Virus record (IMG/VR): IMGVR_UViG_2698536337_000005
DNA: 8,104 nt
DNA from: a virus
Taxonomy: Duplodnaviria > Heunggongvirae > Uroviricota > Caudoviricetes
Direction: 5' to 3' (one strand)
The notes under the pieces were generated by a model. That model saw only the letters and a list, made by a program, of their open reading frames with translations. It had not been told where the DNA came from and made no database searches. A program made the translations under genes and the position numbers. The first letter of the stretch is position 1. Each line of letters begins with the position of its first letter. Below, in pieces: positions 1 to 8,104 of this stretch.

Positions 1-15
1 AGGAGTGTCCGTTAA

Positions 16-273
16 ACTCAGGCTACCTCATTTTTCAGCGATCCGGAGATGCATCCGCTGGATTTCAGTCTGCTGAACCGGCGCGAGGCTGACGAAGAGC
101 CTGAAGATGATGTGCTGATGCAGAAAGCGGCAGGGCTTGCCGGAGGTGTCCGCTTTGGCCCGGACGGGAATGAAGTTATCCCCGCTTCCCCGGATGTGGC
201 GGACATGACGGAGGATGACGTAATGCTGATGACAGTATCAGAAGGGATCGCAGGAGGAGTCCGGTATGGCTGA
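16..273 (+). CDS. T: C-terminal part of the T frame of the G-T tail assembly chaperone (gpT-like); 5' extent uncertain
   Basis: Frame-1 ORF open from 16 (after TAA at 13-15) to TGA at 271-273, overlapping the H start as ATGGCTGA, the position T occupies in lambda. Product is acidic (EADEEPEDD, MTEDD). ATG at 49 has GGAG directly abutting it, so an independent start is doubtful; in lambda T is made only as a G-T frameshift fusion. Sequence identity to lambda T not verified. Confidence 0.5.
   Translation, partial: TQATSFFSDPEMHPLDFSLLNRREADEEPEDDVLMQKAAGLAGGVRFGPDGNEVIPASPDVADMTEDDVMLMTVSEGIAGGVRYG
252..257 (+). promoter_or_regulatory. Shine-Dalgarno AGGAGG for H
   Basis: AGGAGG lies 8 nt upstream of the H ATG at 266. 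Confidence 0.55.
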
Positions 274-2827
274 ACCGGTAGGCGATCTGGTCGTTGATTT
301 GAGTCTGGATGCGGCCAGATTTGACGAGCAGATGGCCAGAGTCAGGCGTCATTTTTCCGGTACGGAAAGTGATGCGAAAAAAACAGCGGCAGTCGTTGAA
401 CAGTCGCTGAGCCGACAGGCGCTGGCTGCACAGAAAGCGGGGATTTCCGTCGGGCAGTATAAAGCCGCCATGCGTATGCTGCCTGCACAGTTCACCGACG
501 TGGCCACGCAGCTTGCAGGGGGGCAGAATCCCTGGCTGATCCTGCTGCAACAGGGTGGTCAGGTTAAGGACTCCTTCGGCGGGATGATCCCCATGTTCAG
601 GGGGCTTGCCGGCGCGATCACCCTGCCGATGGTGGGGGCCACCTCGCTGGCGGTGGCGACCGGTGCGCTGGCGTATGCCTGGTATCAGGGCAACTCAACC
701 CTGTCCGATTTCAACAAAACGCTGGTCCTTTCCGGTAATCAGGCGGGACTGACGGCAGATCGTATGCTGGTCCTGTCCAGAGCCGGGCAGGCGGCAGGGC
801 TGACGTTTAACCAGACCAGCGAGTCACTCAGCGCACTGGTTAAGGCGGGGGTAAGCGGTGAGGCTCAGATTGCGTCCATCAGCCAGAGTGTGGCGCGTTT
901 CTCCTATGCATCCGGCGTGGAGGTGGACAAGGTCGCTGAAGCCTTCGGGAAGCTGACCACAGACCCGACGTCGGGGCTGACGGCGATGGCACGCCAGTTC
1001 CATAACGTGACGGCGGAGCAGATTGCGTATGTTGCTCAGTTGCAGCGTTCCGGCGATGAAGCCGGGGCATTGCAGGCGGCGAACGAGGCCGCAACGAAAG
1101 GGTTTGATGACCAGACCCGCCGCCTGAAAGAGAACATGGGCACGCTGGAGACCTGGGCAGACAGGACTGCACGTGCATTCAAATCCATGTGGGATGCGGT
1201 GCTGGATATTGGTCGTCCTGATACCGCGCAGGAGATGCTGATTAAGGCAGAGGCTGCGTTTAAGAAAGCAGACGACATCTGGAATCTGCGCAAGGATGAT
1301 TATTTCGTTAACGATGAAGCACGGGCGCGTTACTGGGATGATCGTGAAAAAAAACGCCTGGAGCGGGATGCAGCCCAAAAGAGGGTAGATCAACAGCGTC
1401 AACAGGACAAAAATGCGCAGCAGCAGAGCGATACCGAAGCGTCACGGCTGAAATATACCGAAGAGGCGCAGAAGGCTTACGAACGGCTGCAGACGCCGCT
1501 GGAGAAATATACCGCCCGTCAGGAAGAACTGAACAAGGCACTGAAAGACGGAAAAATCCTGCAGGCAGATTACAACACGCTGATGGCGGCGGCGAAAAAG
1601 GATTATGAAGCGACGCTGAAAAAGCCGAAACAGTCCGGCGTGAAGGTGTATGCGGGCGATCGTCAGGAAGACAGTGCTCATGCGGCCCTGCTGACGCTTC
1701 AGGCAGAACTCCGGACGCTGGAGAAGCATGCCGGAGCGAATGAGAAAATCAGCCAGCAGCGCCGGGATTTGTGGAAGGCAGAAAGTCAGTTCGCGGTACT
1801 GGAGGAGGCGGCACAACGTCGCCAGCTGTCCGCACAGGAGAAATCCCTGCTGGCGCATAAAGACGAGACGCTGGAGTACAAACGCCAGCTGGCTGCACTT
1901 GGTGACAAGGTTACGTATCAGGAGCACCTGAATGCGCTGGCGCAGCAGGCGGATAAATTCGCACAGCAGCAACGGGCAAAACGGGCAGCCATTGATGCGA
2001 AAAACCGGGGGCTGACTGACCGGCAGGCAGCGCGGGAAGCCACGGAACAGCGCCTGAAGGAACAGTATGGCGATAATCCTCTGGCGCTGAATAACGTCAT
2101 GTCAGAGCAGAAAAAGACCTGGGCGGCTGAAGACCAGCTTCGCGGGAGCTGGATGGCAGGCCTGAAGTCCGGCTGGAGTGAGTGGGAAGAGAGCGCCACG
2201 GACAGTATGTCACAGGTTAAAAGTGCAGCCACGCAGACCTTTGATGGTATTGCACAGAATATGGCGGCGATGCTGACCGGCAGTGAACAGAACTGGCGCA
2301 GCTTCACCCGCTCCGTGCTGTCCATGATGACAGAAATTCTGCTTAAGCAGGCAATGGTGGGGATTGTCGGGAGTATCGGCAGCGCCATTGGCGGGGCTGT
2401 TGGTGGCGGCGCATCCGCGTCAGGTGGTACAGCCATTCAGGCCGCTGCGGTGAAATTCCATTTTGCAACCGGGGGATTTACGGGAACCGGCGGCAAATAT
2501 GAGCCAGCGGGGATTGTTCACCGTGGTGAATTTGTCTTCACGAAGGAGGCAACCAGCCGGATTGGCGTGGGGAATCTCTACCGGCTGATGCGCGGCTATG
2601 CGGAAGGTGGTTATGTGGGCGGTGCCGGAAGTCCGGCGCAGATGCGGCGGGCTGAAGGCATTAATTTTAATCAGAACAATCACGTGGTGATTCAGAACGA
2701 CGGTACGAATGGTCTGCCAGGTCCACAGATGATGAAGGCCGTGTATGACATGGCCCGCAAGGGTGCCCGTGATGAAATTCAGACACAGATGCGTGATGGT
2801 GGCCTGTTCTCCGGAGGTGGACGATGA
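266..2827 (+). CDS. H: Tail tape measure protein (lambda gpH-like), 853 aa
   Basis: 2562-nt ORF, same length as lambda H. N-terminus MAEPVGDLVVDLSLDAARFDEQ, long charged Q/K/E/R-rich central region (approx. aa 330-640) and Gly-rich hydrophobic C-terminal segment (IVGSIGSAIGGAVGGGASASGG) match my recollection of lambda gpH. Strong SD upstream; stop overlaps M start (ATGA). Confidence 0.97.
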   Translation: MAEPVGDLVVDLSLDAARFDEQMARVRRHFSGTESDAKKTAAVVEQSLSRQALAAQKAGISVGQYKAAMRMLPAQFTDVATQLAGGQNPWLILLQQGGQVKDSFGGMIPMFRGLAGAITLPMVGATSLAVATGALAYAWYQGNSTLSDFNKTLVLSGNQAGLTADRMLVLSRAGQAAGLTFNQTSESLSALVKAGVSGEAQIASISQSVARFSYASGVEVDKVAEAFGKLTTDPTSGLTAMARQFHNVTAEQIAYVAQLQRSGDEAGALQAANEAATKGFDDQTRRLKENMGTLETWADRTARAFKSMWDAVLDIGRPDTAQEMLIKAEAAFKKADDIWNLRKDDYFVNDEARARYWDDREKKRLERDAAQKRVDQQRQQDKNAQQQSDTEASRLKYTEEAQKAYERLQTPLEKYTARQEELNKALKDGKILQADYNTLMAAAKKDYEATLKKPKQSGVKVYAGDRQEDSAHAALLTLQAELRTLEKHAGANEKISQQRRDLWKAESQFAVLEEAAQRRQLSAQEKSLLAHKDETLEYKRQLAALGDKVTYQEHLNALAQQADKFAQQQRAKRAAIDAKNRGLTDRQAAREATEQRLKEQYGDNPLALNNVMSEQKKTWAAEDQLRGSWMAGLKSGWSEWEESATDSMSQVKSAATQTFDGIAQNMAAMLTGSEQNWRSFTRSVLSMMTEILLKQAMVGIVGSIGSAIGGAVGGGASASGGTAIQAAAVKFHFATGGFTGTGGKYEPAGIVHRGEFVFTKEATSRIGVGNLYRLMRGYAEGGYVGGAGSPAQMRRAEGINFNQNNHVVIQNDGTNGLPGPQMMKAVYDMARKGARDEIQTQMRDGGLFSGGGR
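2813..2817 (+). promoter_or_regulatory. Shine-Dalgarno GGAGG for M
   Basis: GGAGG lies 6 nt upstream of the M ATG at 2824, inside the 3' end of H. Confidence 0.5.
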
Positions 2828-3153
2828 AAACCTTCCGCTGGAAAGTGAAACCCGGTATGGATGTGGCTTCGGCCCCTTCTGTAAGAAAGGTGCGCTTTGG
2901 TGATGGCTATTCCCAGCGAGCGCCTGCCGGGCTGAATGCCAACCTGAAAACGTACAGCGTGACGCTTTCTGTCCCCCGTGAGGAGGCCATGGTACTGGAG
3001 TCGTTTCTGGAAGAGCACGGGGGCTGGAAAGCCTTTCTGTGGACGCCGCCTTATGAGTGGCGGCAGATAAAGGTGACCTGCGCAAAATGGTCGTCGCGGG
3101 TCAGTATGCTGCGTGTTGAGTTCAGCGCAGAGTTTGAACAGGTGGTGAACTGA
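2824..3153 (+). CDS. M: Minor tail (tail tip) protein M, 109 aa
   Basis: 330-nt ORF, same length and position as lambda M. Begins MKTFRWKVKPGMDVASAPSVRKVRFGDGYSQRAPAGLNANLKTYSV. Coupled to H (ATGA) and to L (TGATG). Confidence 0.93.
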   Translation: MKTFRWKVKPGMDVASAPSVRKVRFGDGYSQRAPAGLNANLKTYSVTLSVPREEAMVLESFLEEHGGWKAFLWTPPYEWRQIKVTCAKWSSRVSMLRVEFSAEFEQVVN

Positions 3154-3851
3154 TGCAGGATATCCGGCAGGAAACACTGAATGAATGCACCCGTGCGGAG
3201 CAGTCGGCCAGCGTGGTGCTCTGGGAAATCGATCTGACAGAGGTCGGTGGTGAACGTTATTTTTTCTGTAATGAGCAGAACGAAAAAGGTGAGCCGGTCA
3301 CCTGGCAGGGGCGACAGTATCAGCCGTATCCCATTCAGGGGAGTGGTTTTGAACTGAATGGCAAAGGCACCAGTACGCGCCCCACGCTGATGGTTTCTAA
3401 CCTGTACGGTATGGTCACCGGGATGGCGGAAGATCTACAGAGTCTGGTCGGCGGAACGGTGGTCCGGCGTAAGGTTTACGCCCGTTTTCTGGATGCGGTG
3501 AACTTCGTCAACGGAAACAGTGACGCCGATCCGGAGCAGGAGGTGATCAGCCGCTGGCGCATTGAGCAGTGCAGCGAACTGAGCGCGGTGAGTGCCTCTT
3601 TTGTACTGTCCACGCCGACGGAAACAGATGGCGCTGTTTTTCCGGGACGTATCATGCTGGCCAACACCTGCACCTGGACCTATCGCGGCGATGAGTGCGG
3701 TTATCACGGTCCGGCGGTCGCGGATGAATATGACCAGCCAACGTCCGACATCACGAAGGATAAATGCAGCAAATGCCTGAGTGGCTGTAAGTTTCGCAAT
3801 AACGTCGGCAACTTTGGCGGCTTCCTTTCCATTAACAAACTTTCGCAGTAA
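3153..3851 (+). CDS. L: Minor tail (tail tip) protein L, 232 aa, with C-terminal cysteine cluster
   Basis: 699-nt ORF, same length and position as lambda L. Begins MQDIRQETLNECTRAEQSASVVLWEIDL. C-terminal cysteines (CTWTYRGDECGYHG ... CSKCLSGC) fit the Fe-S-binding region described for gpL-family proteins. Confidence 0.93.
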   Translation: MQDIRQETLNECTRAEQSASVVLWEIDLTEVGGERYFFCNEQNEKGEPVTWQGRQYQPYPIQGSGFELNGKGTSTRPTLMVSNLYGMVTGMAEDLQSLVGGTVVRRKVYARFLDAVNFVNGNSDADPEQEVISRWRIEQCSELSAVSASFVLSTPTETDGAVFPGRIMLANTCTWTYRGDECGYHGPAVADEYDQPTSDITKDKCSKCLSGCKFRNNVGNFGGFLSINKLSQ

Positions 3852-3856
3852 ATCCC

Positions 3857-4744
3857 ATGACAGAGACAGAATCAGCGATTCTGGCGCACGCCCGGCGATG
3901 TGCGCCAGCGGAGTCGTGTGGCTTCGTGGTAAGAACGCCGGAGGGAGACAGGTATCTTCCCAGCGAGAATATCTCCGGTGAGCCGGAGGAACGGTTCCGG
4001 ATGGCTCCGGAGGACTNNNNNATTCTGGCGCACGCCCGGCGATGTGCTCCAGCGGAGTCGTGCGGCTTCGTGGTAAGAACGCCGGAGGGGGAAAGATATT
4101 TCCCCTGCGTGAATATCTCCGGTGAGCCGGAGGCGTATTTCCGTATGTCGCCGGAAGACTGGCTGCAGGCAGAGATGCAGGGTGAGATTGTGGCACTGGT
4201 CCACAGCCACCCCGGTGGTCTGCCCTGGCTGAGTGAGGCCGACCGGCGGCTGCAGGTGCAGAGTGATTTGCCGTGGTGGCTGGTCTGCCGGGGGGCGATT
4301 CACAAGTTCCGCTGTGTGCCACATCTTACCGGGCGGCGCTTTGAGCACGGGGTGACGGACTGTTACACGCTGTTCCGGGATGCTTACCATCTGGCGGGGA
4401 TTGAGATGCCGGATTTTCATCGTGAGGATGACTGGTGGCGTCACGGTCAGAATCTCTATCTGGATAATCTGGAGGCCACAGGGCTGTATCAGGTGCCGTT
4501 GTCAGCGGCGCAGCCGGGCGATGTGCTGCTGTGCTGTTTTGGTTCATCGGTGCCGAATCATGCCGCCATTTACTGTGGTGACGGCGAGCTGCTGCACCAT
4601 ATTCCTGAACAACTGAGCAAACGAGAGAGGTATACCGACAAATGGCAGCGACGCACACACTCCCTCTGGCGTCACCGGGCATGGCACGCATCTGCCTTTA
4701 CGGGGATTTGCAACGATTTGGCCGCCGCATCGACCTTCGTGTGA
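3857..4744 (+). CDS. K: Tail tip assembly protein K (JAMM/MPN plus NlpC/P60 domains); as written the ORF contains an N run and a duplicated N-terminal segment
   Basis: ORF reads 295 aa through NNNNN at 4017-4021; residues 8-53 (3878-4016) are repeated in divergent form at 4022-4160, so the real protein is probably ~247 aa from 3857, or 199 aa from the classical lambda start ATG at 4145 (MSPEDWLQ). JAMM-type motif HSHPGGLPWLSEAD at approx. 4202-4243; NlpC/P60-like Cys (GVTDCYTLF) and His (NHAAIY) downstream. Ends TFV* at 4744, overlapping I by 103 nt as in lambda. Confidence 0.8.
   Translation: MTETESAILAHARRCAPAESCGFVVRTPEGDRYLPSENISGEPEERFRMAPEDXXILAHARRCAPAESCGFVVRTPEGERYFPCVNISGEPEAYFRMSPEDWLQAEMQGEIVALVHSHPGGLPWLSEADRRLQVQSDLPWWLVCRGAIHKFRCVPHLTGRRFEHGVTDCYTLFRDAYHLAGIEMPDFHREDDWWRHGQNLYLDNLEATGLYQVPLSAAQPGDVLLCCFGSSVPNHAAIYCGDGELLHHIPEQLSKRERYTDKWQRRTHSLWRHRAWHASAFTGICNDLAAASTFV
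3878..4160. repeat. Direct overlap-duplication 1: 3878-4016 vs 4022-4160 (period 144), copies clearly divergent
   Basis: Both copies begin attctggcgcacgcccggcgatgtgc and end ccgga(g/a)gact. They differ in two patches, giving GDRYLPSENISGEPEERFRMAPED vs GERYFPCVNISGEPEAYFRMSPED. Confidence 0.9.
4017..4021. other. Run of 5 N (unresolved bases / junction 1)
   Basis: Literal nnnnn in the sequence; sequence after it restarts 144 nt upstream in K. Confidence 0.99.
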
Positions 4745-4802
4745 AAACGGGTGCCGAAGCCATCCGGGCGATGGCCACACAGCTCCCTGCGTTTCGTCAG
4801 AA
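4642..4802 (+). CDS. I: gpI (tail assembly protein I) N-terminal fragment, first copy, cut at N junction
   Basis: MAATHTLPLASPGMARICLYGDLQRFGRRIDLRVKTGAEAIRAMATQLPAFRQ matches the start of the complete I at 5190. Begins 103 nt before the K stop. Interrupted at N (4803). Confidence 0.7.
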
Positions 4803-4803
4803 N
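4803..4803. other. Single N (junction 2)
   Basis: Literal n; sequence after it restarts 548 nt upstream (K middle). Confidence 0.99.
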
Positions 4804-5292
4804 GTGCAGAGTGATTTGCCGTGGTGGCTGGTCTGCCGGGGGGCGATTCACAAGTTCCGCTGTGTGCCGCATCTCACCGGGCGGCGCTTTGAGCACGGGG
4901 TGACGGACTGTTACACGCTGTTCCGGGATGCTTATCATCTGGCAGGGATTGAGATGCCGGATTTTCATCGCGGGGATGACTGGTGGCGTAACGGTCAGAA
5001 TCTCTATCTTGACAATATGGAGGTGACGGGTTTTTACCGTGTCGCACTGACAGAGGCACAGCCGGGCGATGTGCTGCTGTGCTGTTTTGGTTCATCGGTG
5101 CCGAATCATGCCGCCATTTACTGTGGTGACGGCGAGCTGCTGCACCATATTCCTGAACAACTGAGCAAACGAGAGAGGTACACCGACAAATGGCAGCGAC
5201 GCACACACTCCCTCTGGCGTCACCGGGCATGGCACGCATCTGCCTTTACGGGGATTTGCAACGATTTGGCCGCCGCATCGACCTTCGTGTGA
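4804..5292 (+). CDS. K: gpK C-terminal fragment (second allele, NlpC/P60 part), lacks N-terminus
   Basis: VQSDLPWWLVCRGAIHKFRCVPHLTGRRFEHGVTDCYTLF ... TFV*; in frame with the I fragment upstream only through the N-containing codon. Confidence 0.7.
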   Translation: MQSDLPWWLVCRGAIHKFRCVPHLTGRRFEHGVTDCYTLFRDAYHLAGIEMPDFHRGDDWWRNGQNLYLDNMEVTGFYRVALTEAQPGDVLLCCFGSSVPNHAAIYCGDGELLHHIPEQLSKRERYTDKWQRRTHSLWRHRAWHASAFTGICNDLAAASTFV

Positions 5293-5861
5293 AAACGGGT
5301 GCCGAAGCCATCCGGGCGATGGCCACACAGCTCCCTGCGTTTCGTCAGAAGCTGAGCGACGGCTGGTATCAGGTGCGTATTGCCGGGCAGGATGTTAGCA
5401 CGTCCGGATTAACGGCACAGTTACATGAGGCTCTGCCTGACGGCGCTGTGATTCATATTGTTCCCAGAGTCGCCGGGGCCAAGTCAGGTGGTGTATTCCA
5501 GATTGTCCTGGGAGCAGCCGCCATTGCCGGATCATTCTTTACCGCCGGAGCCACCCTTGCAGCATGGGGGGCTGCCATTGGTGCCGGTGGTATGACCGGC
5601 ATTCTGTTTTCTCTCGGTGCCAGTATGGTGCTCGGCGGTGTGGCTCAGATGCTGGCACCGAAAGCCAGAACTCCCCGCACACAGACAACGGATAACGGTA
5701 AGCAGAACACCTATTTCTCCTCACTGGATAACATGGTTGCCCAGGGCAATGTTATGCCTGTTCTGTATGGTGAAATGCGCGTGGGGTCACGTGTGGTATC
5801 TCAGGAGATCAGCACGGCAGACGAAGGGGACGGTGGTCAGGTTGTGGTGATTGGTCGCTGA
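5190..5861 (+). CDS. I: Tail assembly protein I, 223 aa (complete copy)
   Basis: 672-nt ORF, same length as lambda I. Begins MAATHTLPLASPGMARICLYGDLQRFGRRIDLRV, ends GDGGQVVVIGR. Starts 103 nt inside the K-fragment ORF, as in lambda. Confidence 0.93.
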   Translation: MAATHTLPLASPGMARICLYGDLQRFGRRIDLRVKTGAEAIRAMATQLPAFRQKLSDGWYQVRIAGQDVSTSGLTAQLHEALPDGAVIHIVPRVAGAKSGGVFQIVLGAAAIAGSFFTAGATLAAWGAAIGAGGMTGILFSLGASMVLGGVAQMLAPKARTPRTQTTDNGKQNTYFSSLDNMVAQGNVMPVLYGEMRVGSRVVSQEISTADEGDGGQVVVIGR

Positions 5862-5882
5862 TGCAAAATGTTTTATGTGAAA

Positions 5883-5900
5883 TCGCCTCCGGGCGGTTTT
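5883..5900 (+). terminator. Short GC hairpin plus T-tract in I-J intergenic region (copy 1)
   Basis: tcgcc-tccg-ggcgg followed by tttt, 22 nt after the I stop and ~22 nt before the J ATG. Stem only ~5 bp, so a weak terminator or RNA structure at best. Confidence 0.3.
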
Positions 5901-5921
5901 ATCGTTTATGGAGCATGACGA

Positions 5922-6127
5922 ATGGGTAAAGGCAGCAGTAAGGGGCATACCCCGCGCGAAGCGAAGGACAACCTGAAGTCCACGCAGCTGCTGAGTGTGA
6001 TCGATGCCATCAGCGAAGGGCCGGTTGAAGGTCCGGTGGATGGATTAAAAAGCGTGCTGCTGAACAGTACGCCGGTGCTGGACAGTGAGGGGAATACCAA
6101 CATCTCCGGCGTCACGGTGGTGTTCCG
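5922..6127 (+). CDS. J: gpJ N-terminal fragment (first copy), cut at N junction
   Basis: MGKGSSKGHTPREAKDNLKSTQLLSVIDAISEGPVEGPVDGLKSVLLNSTPVLDSEGNTNISGVTVVF matches the start of the long J copy at 6487. The track ORF continues to 6164 only because post-junction sequence is read in the wrong frame. Confidence 0.7.
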
Positions 6128-6128
6128 N
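6128..6128. other. Single N (junction 3)
   Basis: Literal n; sequence after it restarts 565 nt upstream (I C-terminal region). Confidence 0.99.
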
Positions 6129-6129
6129 T

Positions 6130-6426
6130 ATATGGATGCCGGGGGTAGGAATTATGGCGAGTAATCTGCTGTTTTCTCTCGGTGCCAGTATGACGCTTGG
6201 CGGTGTTGCACAGATGCTGGCACCGAAAGCCAGAACTCCCCGTACACAGACAACGGATAACGGTAAGCAGAACACGTATTTCTCGTCACTGGATAACATG
6301 GTTGCCCAGGGCAATGTTCTGCCCGTTCTGTACGGTGAAATGCGCGTGGGGTCACGTGTGGTTTCTCAGGAGATCAGCACGGCAGACGAAGGGGATGGTG
6401 GTCAGGTTGTGGTGATTGGTCGCTGA
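6130..6426 (+). CDS. I: gpI-like C-terminal fragment, divergent allele
   Basis: Frame after the N reads IWMPGVGIMASNLLFSLGASMTLGGVAQMLAPKARTPRTQTTDNGKQNTYFSSLDNMVAQGNVLPVLYGEMRVGSRVVSQEISTADEGDGGQVVVIGR, versus ...AIGAGGMTGILFSLGASMVLGG... in the complete I. Internal ATG at 6154 preceded by GGTAGGA. The track's start at 6085 is J-fragment sequence in another frame. Confidence 0.65.
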   Translation: MWMPGVGIMASNLLFSLGASMTLGGVAQMLAPKARTPRTQTTDNGKQNTYFSSLDNMVAQGNVLPVLYGEMRVGSRVVSQEISTADEGDGGQVVVIGR

Positions 6427-6447
6427 TGCAAAATGTTTTATGTGAAA

Positions 6448-6465
6448 CCGCCTGCGGGCGGTTTT
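6448..6465 (+). terminator. Short GC hairpin plus T-tract in I-J intergenic region (copy 2)
   Basis: ccgcc-tgcg-ggcgg followed by tttt; same position relative to the I stop and J start as copy 1. Confidence 0.3.
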
Positions 6466-6474
6466 GTCGTTTAT

Positions 6475-6478
6475 GGAG
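6475..6478 (+). promoter_or_regulatory. Shine-Dalgarno GGAG for J
   Basis: GGAG lies 8 nt upstream of the J ATG at 6487. Confidence 0.45.
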
Positions 6479-6486
6479 CGTGAGGA

Positions 6487-8104
6487 ATGGGTAAAGGCAG
6501 CAGTAAGGGGCATACCCCGCGCGAAGCGAAGGACAACCTGAAATCCACGCAGTTGCTGAGTGTGATTGATGCCATCAGCGAAGGGCCGGTTGACGGTCCG
6601 GTGGATGGATTAAAAAGCGTGCTGCTGAACGGTACGCCGGTCCTGGACAGCGAGGGGAAGACAAACCTTTCCGGTGTTACGGTGGTGTTCCGTGCAGGTG
6701 AGCAGGAGCAGACACCGCCGGAGGGTTTTGAATCCTCCGGCTCCGAGACGGTGCTGGGTACGGAAGTGAAATATGACACGCCGATCACCCGGACCATCAC
6801 GTCGGCAAACATCGACCGTCTGCGCCTGACCTTCGGTGTGCAGGCACTGGTGGAAACCACCTCAAAGGGTGACCGGAATCCGTCGGAAGTCCGCCTGCTG
6901 GTTCAGATACAGCGTAACGGTGGCTGGGTGACGGAAAAAGACATCACCATTAAGGGCAAAACCACCTCGCAGTATCTGGCCTCGGTGGTGGTGGATAACC
7001 TGCCGCCGCGCCCGTTTAATATCCGGATGCGCAGAATGACGCCGGACAGCACCACAGACCAGCTGCAGAACAAAACGCTCTGGTCGTCGTACACCGAAAT
7101 CATCGATGTGAAACAGTGCTACCCGAACACGGCACTGGTCGGCGTACAGGTGGATTCGGAGCAGTTCGGCAGCCAGCAGGTGAGCCGTAATTATCATCTT
7201 CGCGGGCGCATTCTGCAGGTGCCGTCGAACTATAATCCGCAGACGCGGCAATACAGCGGTATCTGGGACGGAACGCTTAAGCCAGCATACAGCAACAACA
7301 TGGCCTGGTGTCTGTGGGATATGCTGACCCATCCGCGCTATGGCATGGGGAAACGTCTTGGTGCGGCAGATGTGGATAAATGGGCGCTGTATGTCATCGG
7401 CCAGTACTGTGACCAGTCGGTGCCGGACGGCTTTGGCAGCACGGAGCCGCGCATCACCTGTAATGCCTGGCTGACCACACAGCGCAAGGCGTGGGATGTG
7501 CTCAGTGATTTCTGCTCGGCGATGCGCTGTATGCCGGTATGGAACGGGCAGACGCTGACGTTCGTGCAGGACCGACAGTCGGATAAGGTGTGGGCCTATA
7601 ACCGCAGTAATGTGGTGATGCCGGATGATGGCGCGCCGTTCCGCTACAGTTTCAGCGCCCTGAAAGACCGCCATAATGCCGTTGAGGTGAACTGGATTGA
7701 CCCAGATAACGGCTGGGAGACGGCGACAGAGCTTGTGGAGGATACGCAGGCCATTGTCCGTTACGGTCGTAACGTCACGAAGATGGATGCCTTTGGCTGT
7801 ACCAGCCGGGGGCAGGCACACCGCGCCGGGCTGTGGCTGATTAAAACGGAACTGCTGGAGACGCAGACCGTGGATTTCAGCGTGGGTGCTGAAGGGCTTC
7901 GTCATGTACCGGGCGATGTCATTGAAATCTGCGATGATGACTATGCCGGTATCCGCACCGGCGGGCGCGTGCTGGCGGTGAACAGCCAGACCCGGACGCT
8001 GACGCTCGACCGTGAAATCACGCTGCCATCCTCCGGCACCACGCTGATAAGCCTGGTTGACGGGCAGGGGAATCCGGTCAGCGTGGAGGTCCAGTCCGTC
8101 ACCG
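6487..8104 (+). CDS. J: Central tail fibre / host specificity protein J, N-terminal ~539 codons (3' end beyond window)
   Basis: Frame open from ATG 6487 to the window end; absent from the track only because it has no stop. MGKGSSKGHTPREAKDNLKSTQLLSVIDAISEGPVDGPVDGLKSVLLNGTPVLDSEGKTNLSGVTVVFRAGEQEQTPPEGFESSGSETVLGTEVKYDTPITRTI... matches my recollection of lambda gpJ. The minus-strand ORFs 6471-6860 and 6862-7905 are its antisense shadows. Confidence 0.95.
   Translation, partial: MGKGSSKGHTPREAKDNLKSTQLLSVIDAISEGPVDGPVDGLKSVLLNGTPVLDSEGKTNLSGVTVVFRAGEQEQTPPEGFESSGSETVLGTEVKYDTPITRTITSANIDRLRLTFGVQALVETTSKGDRNPSEVRLLVQIQRNGGWVTEKDITIKGKTTSQYLASVVVDNLPPRPFNIRMRRMTPDSTTDQLQNKTLWSSYTEIIDVKQCYPNTALVGVQVDSEQFGSQQVSRNYHLRGRILQVPSNYNPQTRQYSGIWDGTLKPAYSNNMAWCLWDMLTHPRYGMGKRLGAADVDKWALYVIGQYCDQSVPDGFGSTEPRITCNAWLTTQRKAWDVLSDFCSAMRCMPVWNGQTLTFVQDRQSDKVWAYNRSNVVMPDDGAPFRYSFSALKDRHNAVEVNWIDPDNGWETATELVEDTQAIVRYGRNVTKMDAFGCTSRGQAHRAGLWLIKTELLETQTVDFSVGAEGLRHVPGDVIEICDDDYAGIRTGGRVLAVNSQTRTLTLDREITLPSSGTTLISLVDGQGNPVSVEVQSVT

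Follow-up and report, generated by a model that had tools for sequence, protein, structure and literature searches.

The tail-tip operon of phage lambda has the gene order H-M-L-K-I-J, an arrangement also found in phages 434, 21 and HK630 and in many E. coli and Shigella prophages. In genome assembly, a gap between duplicated copies on one scaffold is described as a hallmark of false heterotype duplications (PMC9516828); joins made by SSPACE create N gaps, and the greedy extension of GapFiller may join sequences falsely (PMC5320598). The DNA analyzed here, an 8,104-nt stretch of a tailed-phage record (IMG/VR IMGVR_UViG_2698536337_000005) that is called the window below, has the lambda gene order and the same Pfam families: its exact H and I proteins retrieve lambda-like tail-tip loci with which the window is colinear, and the family set of that operon is TMP_2/Tape_meas_lam_C, Phage_min_tail, Phage_tail_L, Prok-JAB plus NLPC_P60, Lambda_tail_I and GpJ domains (precomputed Pfam hits). 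These matches identify the window as a lambda-like tail operon with the order T'-H-M-L-K-I-J (Table 1). In the searched collection, 6,744 blocks carry the exact H protein; the 223-aa protein of the complete gene I is on record exactly and with Pfam Lambda_tail_I, and E. coli annotation names the gene T product 'phage tail assembly protein T'. When the overlaps described below are discounted, the window is 95-96% identical in nucleotide sequence to phages 434, 21 and lambda, and it differs from the lambda-type operon only by these overlaps, which we consider false, and by an IS600 insertion in T.

Table 1. Features of the 8,104-nt window.
Feature	Coordinates	Strand	Basis or remarks
IS600 (IS3 family) terminal 30 nt, abutting gene T	1..30		exact 30-mer in 3,143 complete E. 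coli genomes
Gene T (tail assembly chaperone), 3' part, cut by IS600 end	31..273	+	aligns with L001 9766-10008, Pfam Phage_tail_T
Gene H, tape measure, 853 aa, P1 allele	266..2827	+	ORF; Pfam TMP_2 and Tape_meas_lam_C
Gene M, minor tail, 109 aa	2824..3153	+	ORF; L001 gene at matching coordinates, Pfam Phage_min_tail
Gene L, minor tail, 232 aa	3153..3851	+	ORF; L001 gene with Pfam Phage_tail_L
Gene K, 5' part, end of putative contig A	3857..4016	+	P1 allele to 3903, P2 allele 3904-4016
Junction 1	4017..4021		probable scaffold gap placeholder, 5 N; restart 144 nt upstream
Putative contig B, pure P1	4022..4802	+	K codon 8 to stop (4022-4744); I first 53 codons (4642-4802)
Junction 2	4803..4803		probable scaffold gap placeholder, 1 N; restart 548 nt upstream
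Putative contig C	4804..6127	+	K 3' 163 codons (4804-5292); complete I 5190-5861; J first 68 codons (5922-6127)
Junction 3	6128..6128		probable scaffold gap placeholder, 1 N; restart 565 nt upstream
Putative contig D	6129..8104	+	different I allele, 3' 98 codons (6130-6426); J from start 6487 to window end

A sequence-only reading of this DNA had claimed that the sequence stops at N in three places and each time resumes at an earlier point in a divergent copy. The window indeed contains exactly three non-ACGT stretches, the junctions of Table 1, and they separate four pieces that we call A to D (1-4016, 4022-4802, 4804-6127 and 6129-8104). The self-comparison that the same reading had proposed as a check, here a repeat search of the whole window, recovers exactly three families of direct repeats of at least 30 nt, with start-to-start spacings of 144, 548 and 565 nt, and no inverted repeats. 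BLAST between neighboring pieces aligns 3878-4016 with 4022-4160 at junction 1 (139 nt, 18 mismatches, ungapped, E = 1e-45), 4256-4802 with 4804-5350 at junction 2 (547 nt, 27 mismatches, E = 0) and 5604-6127 with 6169-6692 at junction 3 (524 nt, 31 mismatches, E = 0), which are identities of 87%, 95% and 94%, respectively; non-neighboring pieces have nothing in common beyond chance 11-12-mers. At all three junctions the upstream copy runs to the last base before the N; at junctions 1 and 2 the downstream copy begins directly after it. The overlap at junction 3 is 564 nt in register and 524 nt alignable: piece D opens with 40 nt (6129-6168) that have no counterpart in piece C (31 mismatches in 40 positions). 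Of the overlaps originally given as 139, 547 and 564 nt, the first two thus stand and the third holds only in register. The mismatches are clustered at 3904-4012 at junction 1 and at 4321-4510 plus 4633 at junction 2, and the last 169 nt of B (4634-4802) recur unchanged in C (5182-5350).

Are the two copies at each junction diverged duplicates of one another, or do they derive from different natural alleles? The window was compared with a panel of loci (given by their L numbers) that includes a common prophage allele, P1 (L001, L005 and L006), and a second natural allele, P2 (L008, L020 and piece 2 of L044). Positions 31-3903 have 1 mismatch to P1; the end of piece A has 18 mismatches to P1, all inside 3904-4012, and its positions 3878-4016 have 1 mismatch in 139 nt to P2 (L008 and L020). 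P1 and P2 are identical over 3864-3903, the site of the allele switch in A. All 781 nt of piece B (781/781) are identical to L001, L003, L005, L006, L007 and five IMG/VR contigs. Piece C has 0 mismatches to P2 (piece 2 of L044) over 4804-5233 and 0 mismatches to P1 over 5182-6127. Piece D has 1 mismatch in 564 nt (6129-6692) to L008 and to piece 2 of L044, and this stretch includes the 40 nt that do not align to C, which are found exactly in 104 IMG/VR contigs and represent another natural allele of gene I. The P2 allele continues in D at least to about 6863; positions 6892-8104 have 6 mismatches to P1, with a cluster at 7276-7284, and no better match in the panel. Because the copies match separate natural alleles with 0-1 mismatches, they are far closer to those than to each other (99.3-100% identity to the outside relative against 87-95% to the partner copy in the window), and we take them on these alignments to be two natural alleles and not diverged duplicates. 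By the same alignments, pieces are themselves chimeric: A is P1 up to 3903 and P2 from 3904 on, and C begins as P2 and becomes P1 somewhere within 5182-5233.

Taken at face value, the window would carry three real tandem partial duplications that arose by unequal recombination between co-resident prophages, the Ns being low-quality base calls. We regard this as extremely unlikely. The Ns lie at all three joints and nowhere else, the allele switch is displaced by 113-430 nt or more from each joint, the two copies at a junction are not each other's closest relatives, and three unequal P1 x P2 crossovers within 2.3 kb are far less parsimonious than unmerged contig ends. The reading frames are on the side of real duplication at junction 1, where the 144-nt offset is a multiple of three (48 codons), so that a 295-codon K-like ORF continues across it, and against it elsewhere: the offsets of 548 and 565 nt shift the frame, and junctions 2 and 3 cut I and J short and leave behind pieces of K and I that lack a start, so the tail operon would be non-functional. 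The sequence-only reading had anticipated such a disruption of K, I and J. The chimeric 295-aa and 216-aa ORFs have no exact protein on record in the searched collection. The in-frame state of junction 1 counts against an assembly artifact as well; the chance that the frame is kept is 1 in 3.

Finished genomes gave a direct length comparison. In a search of 5,426 complete E. coli genomes, window positions 31-8104 (8,074 nt) map as four pieces onto 6,817 nt in the best-listed of the 3,677 genomes with a coverage of at least 80%, and onto about 6,815-6,817 nt in phages 434, 21 and lambda, which are among the phages listed. The surplus of the window is 1,257 nt, which is 144 + 548 + 565. A single-copy K-I-J region about 1.26 kb shorter had been expected from the sequence alone, and every one of the listed best matches among finished E. 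coli genomes and phages has it. Aligned on its own, each piece gives a single colinear block that spans its entire phage-derived part (from position 31 in piece A), as piece D does in E. coli RMDEC364. The joints were judged in the complete genomes from these four-piece, 1,257-nt-shorter mappings and in IMG/VR by pattern scans: none of the three was seen in the listed finished genomes or phages, and all three junction patterns, with any base allowed at N, gave 0 matches in 2.9 million IMG/VR contigs, where the natural continuation of junction 2, used as a control pattern, is present in 59. Single-copy structure in every listed finished genome and phage, and joints absent from IMG/VR, also argue against real duplications.

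The three apparent duplications are thus very probably an assembly artifact, namely unmerged overlapping contig ends from two related alleles, and the comparisons support the view that the window would be a draft scaffold of four contigs, the pieces A to D, and not a contiguous molecule. Both ideas had been put forward in the sequence-only reading; the first is borne out by single-copy colinearity, the distinct natural alleles, the absence of the joints from IMG/VR and the recurrence of N-marked restarts in other drafts (below), and the second by the fact that each piece is one colinear block in finished genomes. Such a scaffold could have come about as follows: The sequenced DNA would have held at least two related copies of the operon, P1 and P2, whose identical stretches short reads could not distinguish, and the assembly would have branched and broken where they differ. 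Contig ends would have run into different alleles, with A going from P1 into P2, B remaining P1, C beginning in P2 and returning to P1 at about 5200, and D beginning in P2. Read-pair links would have ordered the contigs correctly along the operon, and because neighboring ends differ by 5-13% over the same coordinates no merging would have been possible; the scaffolder or gap filler would then have left minimal placeholders of 5, 1 and 1 N. A literal reading of the result would give three false partial duplications (139, 547 and 564 nt), and the true locus would have one K, one I and one J.

The software would be of the kind that combines paired-end scaffolding with greedy gap filling. When no overlap is detected and the gap size is estimated at zero or below, scaffolding tools insert just one N; no statement that a single N means 'overlap expected but not found' was found in the scaffolding and gap-filling papers checked. 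Piece B starts with an identical run of 26 nt, inside a 40-nt run common to P1 and P2, and piece C with one of 65 nt. We rejected a single assembler k-mer size, since runs of 26 and 65 nt are inconsistent with one value. The 30-nt IS remnant at the window start would fit k = 31; a single value of this kind is no evidence.

P1 and P2 are most likely two lambdoid prophages of one bacterial genome. Co-resident paralogous operons are normal, because P1 and P2 sequences share one scaffold in L044 and in L062/L097 and because an E. coli genome has a median of 3, and a maximum of 14, places that match these pieces. The same scaffolding artifact could have drawn its alleles from a mixed sample, whether two strains, a culture with a contaminant, or a pool of phage or metagenome DNA, and no single finished genome with both exact P1 and exact P2 was identified, nor does any complete RefSeq E. 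coli genome match any whole piece at 99% or more, which would suit a mixture. We nevertheless think a mixture unlikely: several lambdoid tail operons per genome are the norm, independent public scaffolds (L020, L044 and L062/L097) join P1 to P2-like sequence, and a scaffold that starts in an IS600 end is in keeping with an isolate chromosome.

That end was recognized from its surroundings in other genomes. In L010 the 30-mer lies 35 nt outside a transposase fragment, in an element that carries the annotation IS3-like IS600 family. The reverse complement of the 30-mer begins with TG, as IS3-family ends do, and every phage match begins at window position 31. Because of the 30 nt of IS600, the window probably begins at a scaffold end, one that probably lies inside a collapsed repeat, and the window is probably an entire short scaffold. 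The first 52 nt, which span the IS600/T junction, have no exact match in viral, genome or metagenome contig collections, and the 74-aa T fragment retrieves eight loci, L077 among them. The presence of IS600 and the lack of a RefSeq E. coli genome matching at 99% or more lead us to suspect that the host of P1 is Shigella or a close relative; no mention of accessions CP023645, CP022459 and CP104423, which were looked up for this host, was found in the literature searched.

As to the unmerged contig ends, six further public drafts (L020, L023, L044, L050, L062 and L077) also show an N-marked restart in this operon. L077 is NCBI UCVI01000010.1 and has six single-N restarts, and the IMG/VR drafts with N-marked restarts are 2698536312_000003, 2695420808_000007, 2695420698_000002, 2690316286_000003 and 2690316210_000007. 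Could the pieces have been put together by hand or along a reference, from amplicons, Sanger reads or contigs, with N spacers and with overlaps left untrimmed? Neighboring pieces do stand in the correct reference order, the N runs of 5, 1 and 1 are short and variable and not a standard fixed spacer, and the 169-nt identical B/C stretch could have served an overlap-based merger. We hold such concatenation to be quite improbable, because the single-N pattern recurs in several unrelated high-throughput drafts, which points to an automatic pipeline, and because the pieces are chimeric near their ends, as is expected of read-based extension and not of clean amplicons.

The link between N and restart was examined by self-BLAST of 152 loci, 143 of them N-free, for direct repeats of at least 100 nt with an offset of up to 6 kb. 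In all N-containing loci except L102, every such repeat has an N within 60 nt of a copy boundary; L102 has a single repeat, with an offset of 189 nt, which neither lies at the N of that locus nor matches anything in K-I-J. Only one of the 143 N-free loci, L130 (IMG/VR 651053022_000004), has repeats in K-I-J, and it carries similar restarts in I-J without any N, so that an N is not a necessary mark and unmarked or real events are possible in general. This public contig is a point in favor of real duplication: the restarts of the window would then be physical, left by repeated unequal recombination as three hybrid P1/P2 partial tandem duplications in a tail operon undergoing decay, with L130 as another such scar. 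We give that account almost no credence.

On this evidence the duplications are not a real feature and nothing biological is duplicated; they matter only as a data-quality warning. Taken at face value, the window yields four spurious gene models, in which K is 295 aa long with a repeat inside it, I is truncated, J is truncated, and fragments of K and I lack a start; these would mimic gene duplication or pseudogenization in a phage tail operon. Since the same artifact is present in L020, L023, L044, L050, L062 and L077, it can inflate counts in databases built from drafts, namely those of protein clusters, of 'novel' tail-protein variants and of apparent prophage decay. A simple filter for such cases would look for short N runs where the sequence on the 3' side aligns again to a place upstream of the N.

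The drafts named above resemble the window in that the sequence breaks at a single N and resumes in another allele, 170-4,250 nt upstream, often with one side 99.9-100% identical to P1, and differ from it in the positions of their junctions and the lengths of their overlaps. The window is also like the false heterotype duplications of the Vertebrate Genomes Project (Ko et al. 2022, Genome Biol 23:205, PMC9516828), in which diverged alleles stand in series with a gap between them and give broken gene models and spurious gene gains, and to which that study applied read-depth and k-mer criteria; as there, the copies in the window are allele-specific and the gap lies exactly between them. Unlike the vertebrate alleles, which are diploid haplotypes, those of the window would belong to paralogous prophages of a haploid bacterium, or could come from a mixture, and its duplicated stretches are only 139-564 nt. 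Finally, the window is like the SSPACE plus GapFiller drafts (Page et al. 2016, PMC5320598), which have N between contigs joined by read pairs and greedily extended contig ends, and the allele switches close to the ends of A and C are what greedy end extension of the GapFiller type would give.

Open reading frames and exact-protein look-ups identify the locus as a lambda-like tail operon (table), and phages 434, 21, lambda and HK630, like thousands of E. coli prophages, are 95-97% identical to it. Only seven characters in the whole window are not A, C, G or T: NNNNN at 4017-4021 (junction 1), one N at 4803 (junction 2) and one N at 6128 (junction 3), which separate pieces A, B, C and D. A repeat search of the whole window found exactly three direct-repeat families, with start-to-start spacings of 144, 548 and 565 nt, and no inverted repeats; when the four pieces were compared with one another by BLAST, neighbours aligned and non-adjacent pieces shared no similarity except chance 11-12-mers. 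The two methods thus agree on the three N-marked junctions, each with a restart at those distances upstream, that the sequence-only reading had described, and the self-comparison it proposed recovers exactly three off-diagonal direct repeats. The overlaps of 139 and 547 nt that it gave for the first two junctions stand as well. The third, given as 564 nt, has that length in register and stands only in part, as piece C aligns to 524 nt of it and not to the opening 40 nt (6129-6168).

Features of the window: genes, N-delimited pieces and overlaps between neighbouring pieces
Feature	Coordinates	Details	Basis
T, 3' end	31-273		ORFs and exact-protein look-ups
H	266-2827	853 aa	ORFs and exact-protein look-ups
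M	2824-3153		ORFs and exact-protein look-ups
L	3153-3851		ORFs and exact-protein look-ups
K, I, J		downstream of L, in that order	ORFs and exact-protein look-ups
Piece A	1-4016		
Piece B	4022-4802		
Piece C	4804-6127		
Piece D	6129-8104		
Junction 1 overlap	3878-4016 vs 4022-4160	139 nt, 18 mismatches, ungapped, E = 1e-45	pairwise BLAST of pieces
Junction 2 overlap	4256-4802 vs 4804-5350	547 nt, 27 mismatches, E = 0	pairwise BLAST of pieces
Junction 3 overlap	5604-6127 vs 6169-6692	524 nt, 31 mismatches, E = 0	pairwise BLAST of pieces

In every best match listed, window positions 31-8104 (8,074 nt) fall as four pieces on about 6,815-6,817 nt of the record, so the excess in the window is 1,257 nt, the exact sum of 144, 548 and 565; a single-copy K-I-J region about 1.26 kb shorter had been foreseen, and this is what the best matches listed contain. 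When each piece is searched alone it gives a single colinear block across all of its phage-derived sequence (from position 31 in piece A), and the block of piece D includes the 40 nt at its start that find no alignment in piece C.

The segments on the two sides of the junctions match two different natural alleles. The first, P1, is a common prophage found by exact look-up of the H and I proteins encoded in the window (representatives L001, CP104423.1; L005, CP023645.1; and L006, CP022459.1). It differs from window 31-3903 by 1 mismatch and from 3904-4016 by 18; piece B is identical to it over its full 781 nt, the only differences in piece C are at 4869-5058 and 5181 (5182-6127 is identical), and the start of piece D is strongly divergent. 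The divergent segments have close matches elsewhere: 3878-4016 differs at 1 of 139 nt from L008 (a prophage of E. coli RMDEC364) and from the IMG/VR contig L020, 4804-5233 at none from the second piece of the IMG/VR draft L044, and 6129-6692 at 1 of 564 nt from both L008 and L044; the 40-mer 6129-6168 is matched exactly in 104 IMG/VR contigs. Judged by these matches, they are a second natural allele, P2, and not degraded copies. Piece A thus passes from P1 to P2 at 3904, within a 40-nt run (3864-3903) common to both alleles; piece B is P1 throughout; piece C is P2 and returns to P1 somewhere in 5182-5233; and piece D is P2 as far as ~6863 at least. The body of piece D in gene J (6892-8104) departs from P1 at just 6 positions, of which four are grouped at 7276-7284, and is not an exact match to P1 or to any P2 proxy. 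The two alleles may have been collapsed into one consensus here, or the stretch may hold a small patch of mosaic sequence. P1 alleles are very common in the collection: 6,744 blocks carry the exact H protein and 605 the exact I protein.

Could the three restarts instead be real tandem duplications? Local duplication followed by divergence predicts that the copies at a junction be closest to each other, but the opposite is seen: they are 87-95% identical to each other and 99.3-100% identical to separate, pre-existing alleles. Exact-pattern searches that accepted any base at N found none of the three joints in 2.9 million IMG/VR contigs, whereas 59 of these contigs contain the natural continuation of junction 2. 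Read literally, moreover, the sequence would describe a tail operon that does not function and that arose by three independent events inside 2.3 kb. Its translation runs through a K of 295 codons with an internal 48-codon repeat, an I that ends after 53 codons, a 163-codon K fragment without a start, an intact I, a J that ends after 68 codons, a 98-codon I fragment without a start and a second J, in keeping with the expectation that real duplications would disrupt K, I and J. The 144-nt offset at junction 1 is divisible by 3, and the 295-codon frame therefore crosses NNNNN (3857-4744); a gene caller would report it as K with 48 residues repeated internally and two X residues, a spurious "variant" protein.

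The same signature is present in six other public drafts with single Ns in this operon, which were among the loci fetched as controls: five from IMG/VR (L020, L023, L044, L050 and L062) and one from NCBI (L077; UCVI01000010.1, GCA_900478935.1). In these the sequence after the N steps back upstream by 170-4,250 nt and continues in another allele, and one side of the N is often 99.9-100% P1. L077 has six single-N restarts in 12 kb (6881-18504) of lambdoid tail operon, each into another allele, with duplicated gene calls for Z-U-V-G-T, L, K and I; in this public assembly the window's artefact is more severe. The P2 segments of L044 are identical to those of the window. The five IMG/VR drafts are probably related strains run through a similar pipeline.

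When 152 loci and the window (1.6 Mb in all) were each aligned to themselves by BLAST, 19 direct repeats of 100 nt or more had an N no more than 60 nt from a repeat-copy boundary, and all 19 are confined to the window and these six drafts. The sole other repeat in an N-containing locus, L102, has a 189-nt offset, lies away from its N and has no K-I-J match. Among the 143 N-free loci, repeats in K-I-J occur in L130 only; the others lie in a side-tail-fibre ORF or the head region, outside K-I-J, or are unmatched in P1. L130 (IMGVR_UViG_651053022_000004) has five successive I-J restarts at 7700-12000 (offsets 805, 195, 115, 129 and 246 nt; 87-95% identity) and zero Ns. They resemble the window's stutter but have no mark at the joints, and come either from a misassembly that was left unmarked or from a rearrangement that is real.

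The allele matches, the absence of the joints from IMG/VR and the recurrence of the signature in other drafts support the proposal that the restarts are unmerged contig ends from related alleles; the observation on which it was built is confirmed. On this comparison of sequences, the three "duplications" are most probably not a real feature of any molecule. The two alleles may possibly come from a mixed sample. Co-resident prophages in one genome are favoured, because a finished E. coli genome has 3 places (median), and can have as many as 14, that match window pieces, because independent scaffolds (L020, L044 and L062/L097) join P1 to P2-like sequence, and because the window opens with the outermost 30 nt of IS600 (IS3 family; positions 1-30, AGGAGTGTCCGTTAAACTCAGGCTACCTCA) fused directly to gene T at 30/31. 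A chromosomal scaffold that ended in a collapsed IS repeat would resemble this start. None of the top E. coli matches listed reaches upstream of position 31, and the 52-nt IS600/T junction was not found in the collections of viral, genome or metagenome contigs, which suggests that the insertion in T is strain-specific and that the window begins at a scaffold end within a collapsed IS repeat. No complete RefSeq E. coli genome is more than 98.8% identical to piece B; with the IS600 end, this ceiling is a hint that the host may be catalogued under a name other than E. coli, for example Shigella.

The window has N-marked contig boundaries, pieces in the correct order, neighbours that overlap in coordinates and allele switches near the piece ends. 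Most likely, the sequenced DNA contained two related tail operons and short-read assembly broke in the P1/P2 tangle, with contig ends that grew into one allele or the other, perhaps through greedy gap filling. The contigs would then have been ordered by read pairs, and their overlapping ends left unmerged, because they differ by 5-13%, with a minimal N placeholder written between them. Such scaffolding and gap-filling tools may leave a single N where the expected gap is zero or below. The sole practical value of the finding is as a warning that N-marked restarts breed spurious tail-gene variants in draft-derived databases. One widely used bacterial pipeline scaffolds with SSPACE, which produces N gaps, and then applies the greedy GapFiller, and its authors concede that false joins are possible (PMC5320598). 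Vertebrate assemblies contain "false heterotype duplications" with gaps between the copies (PMC9516828), and the window would be their bacterial counterpart, in which the two copies come from paralogous prophages.
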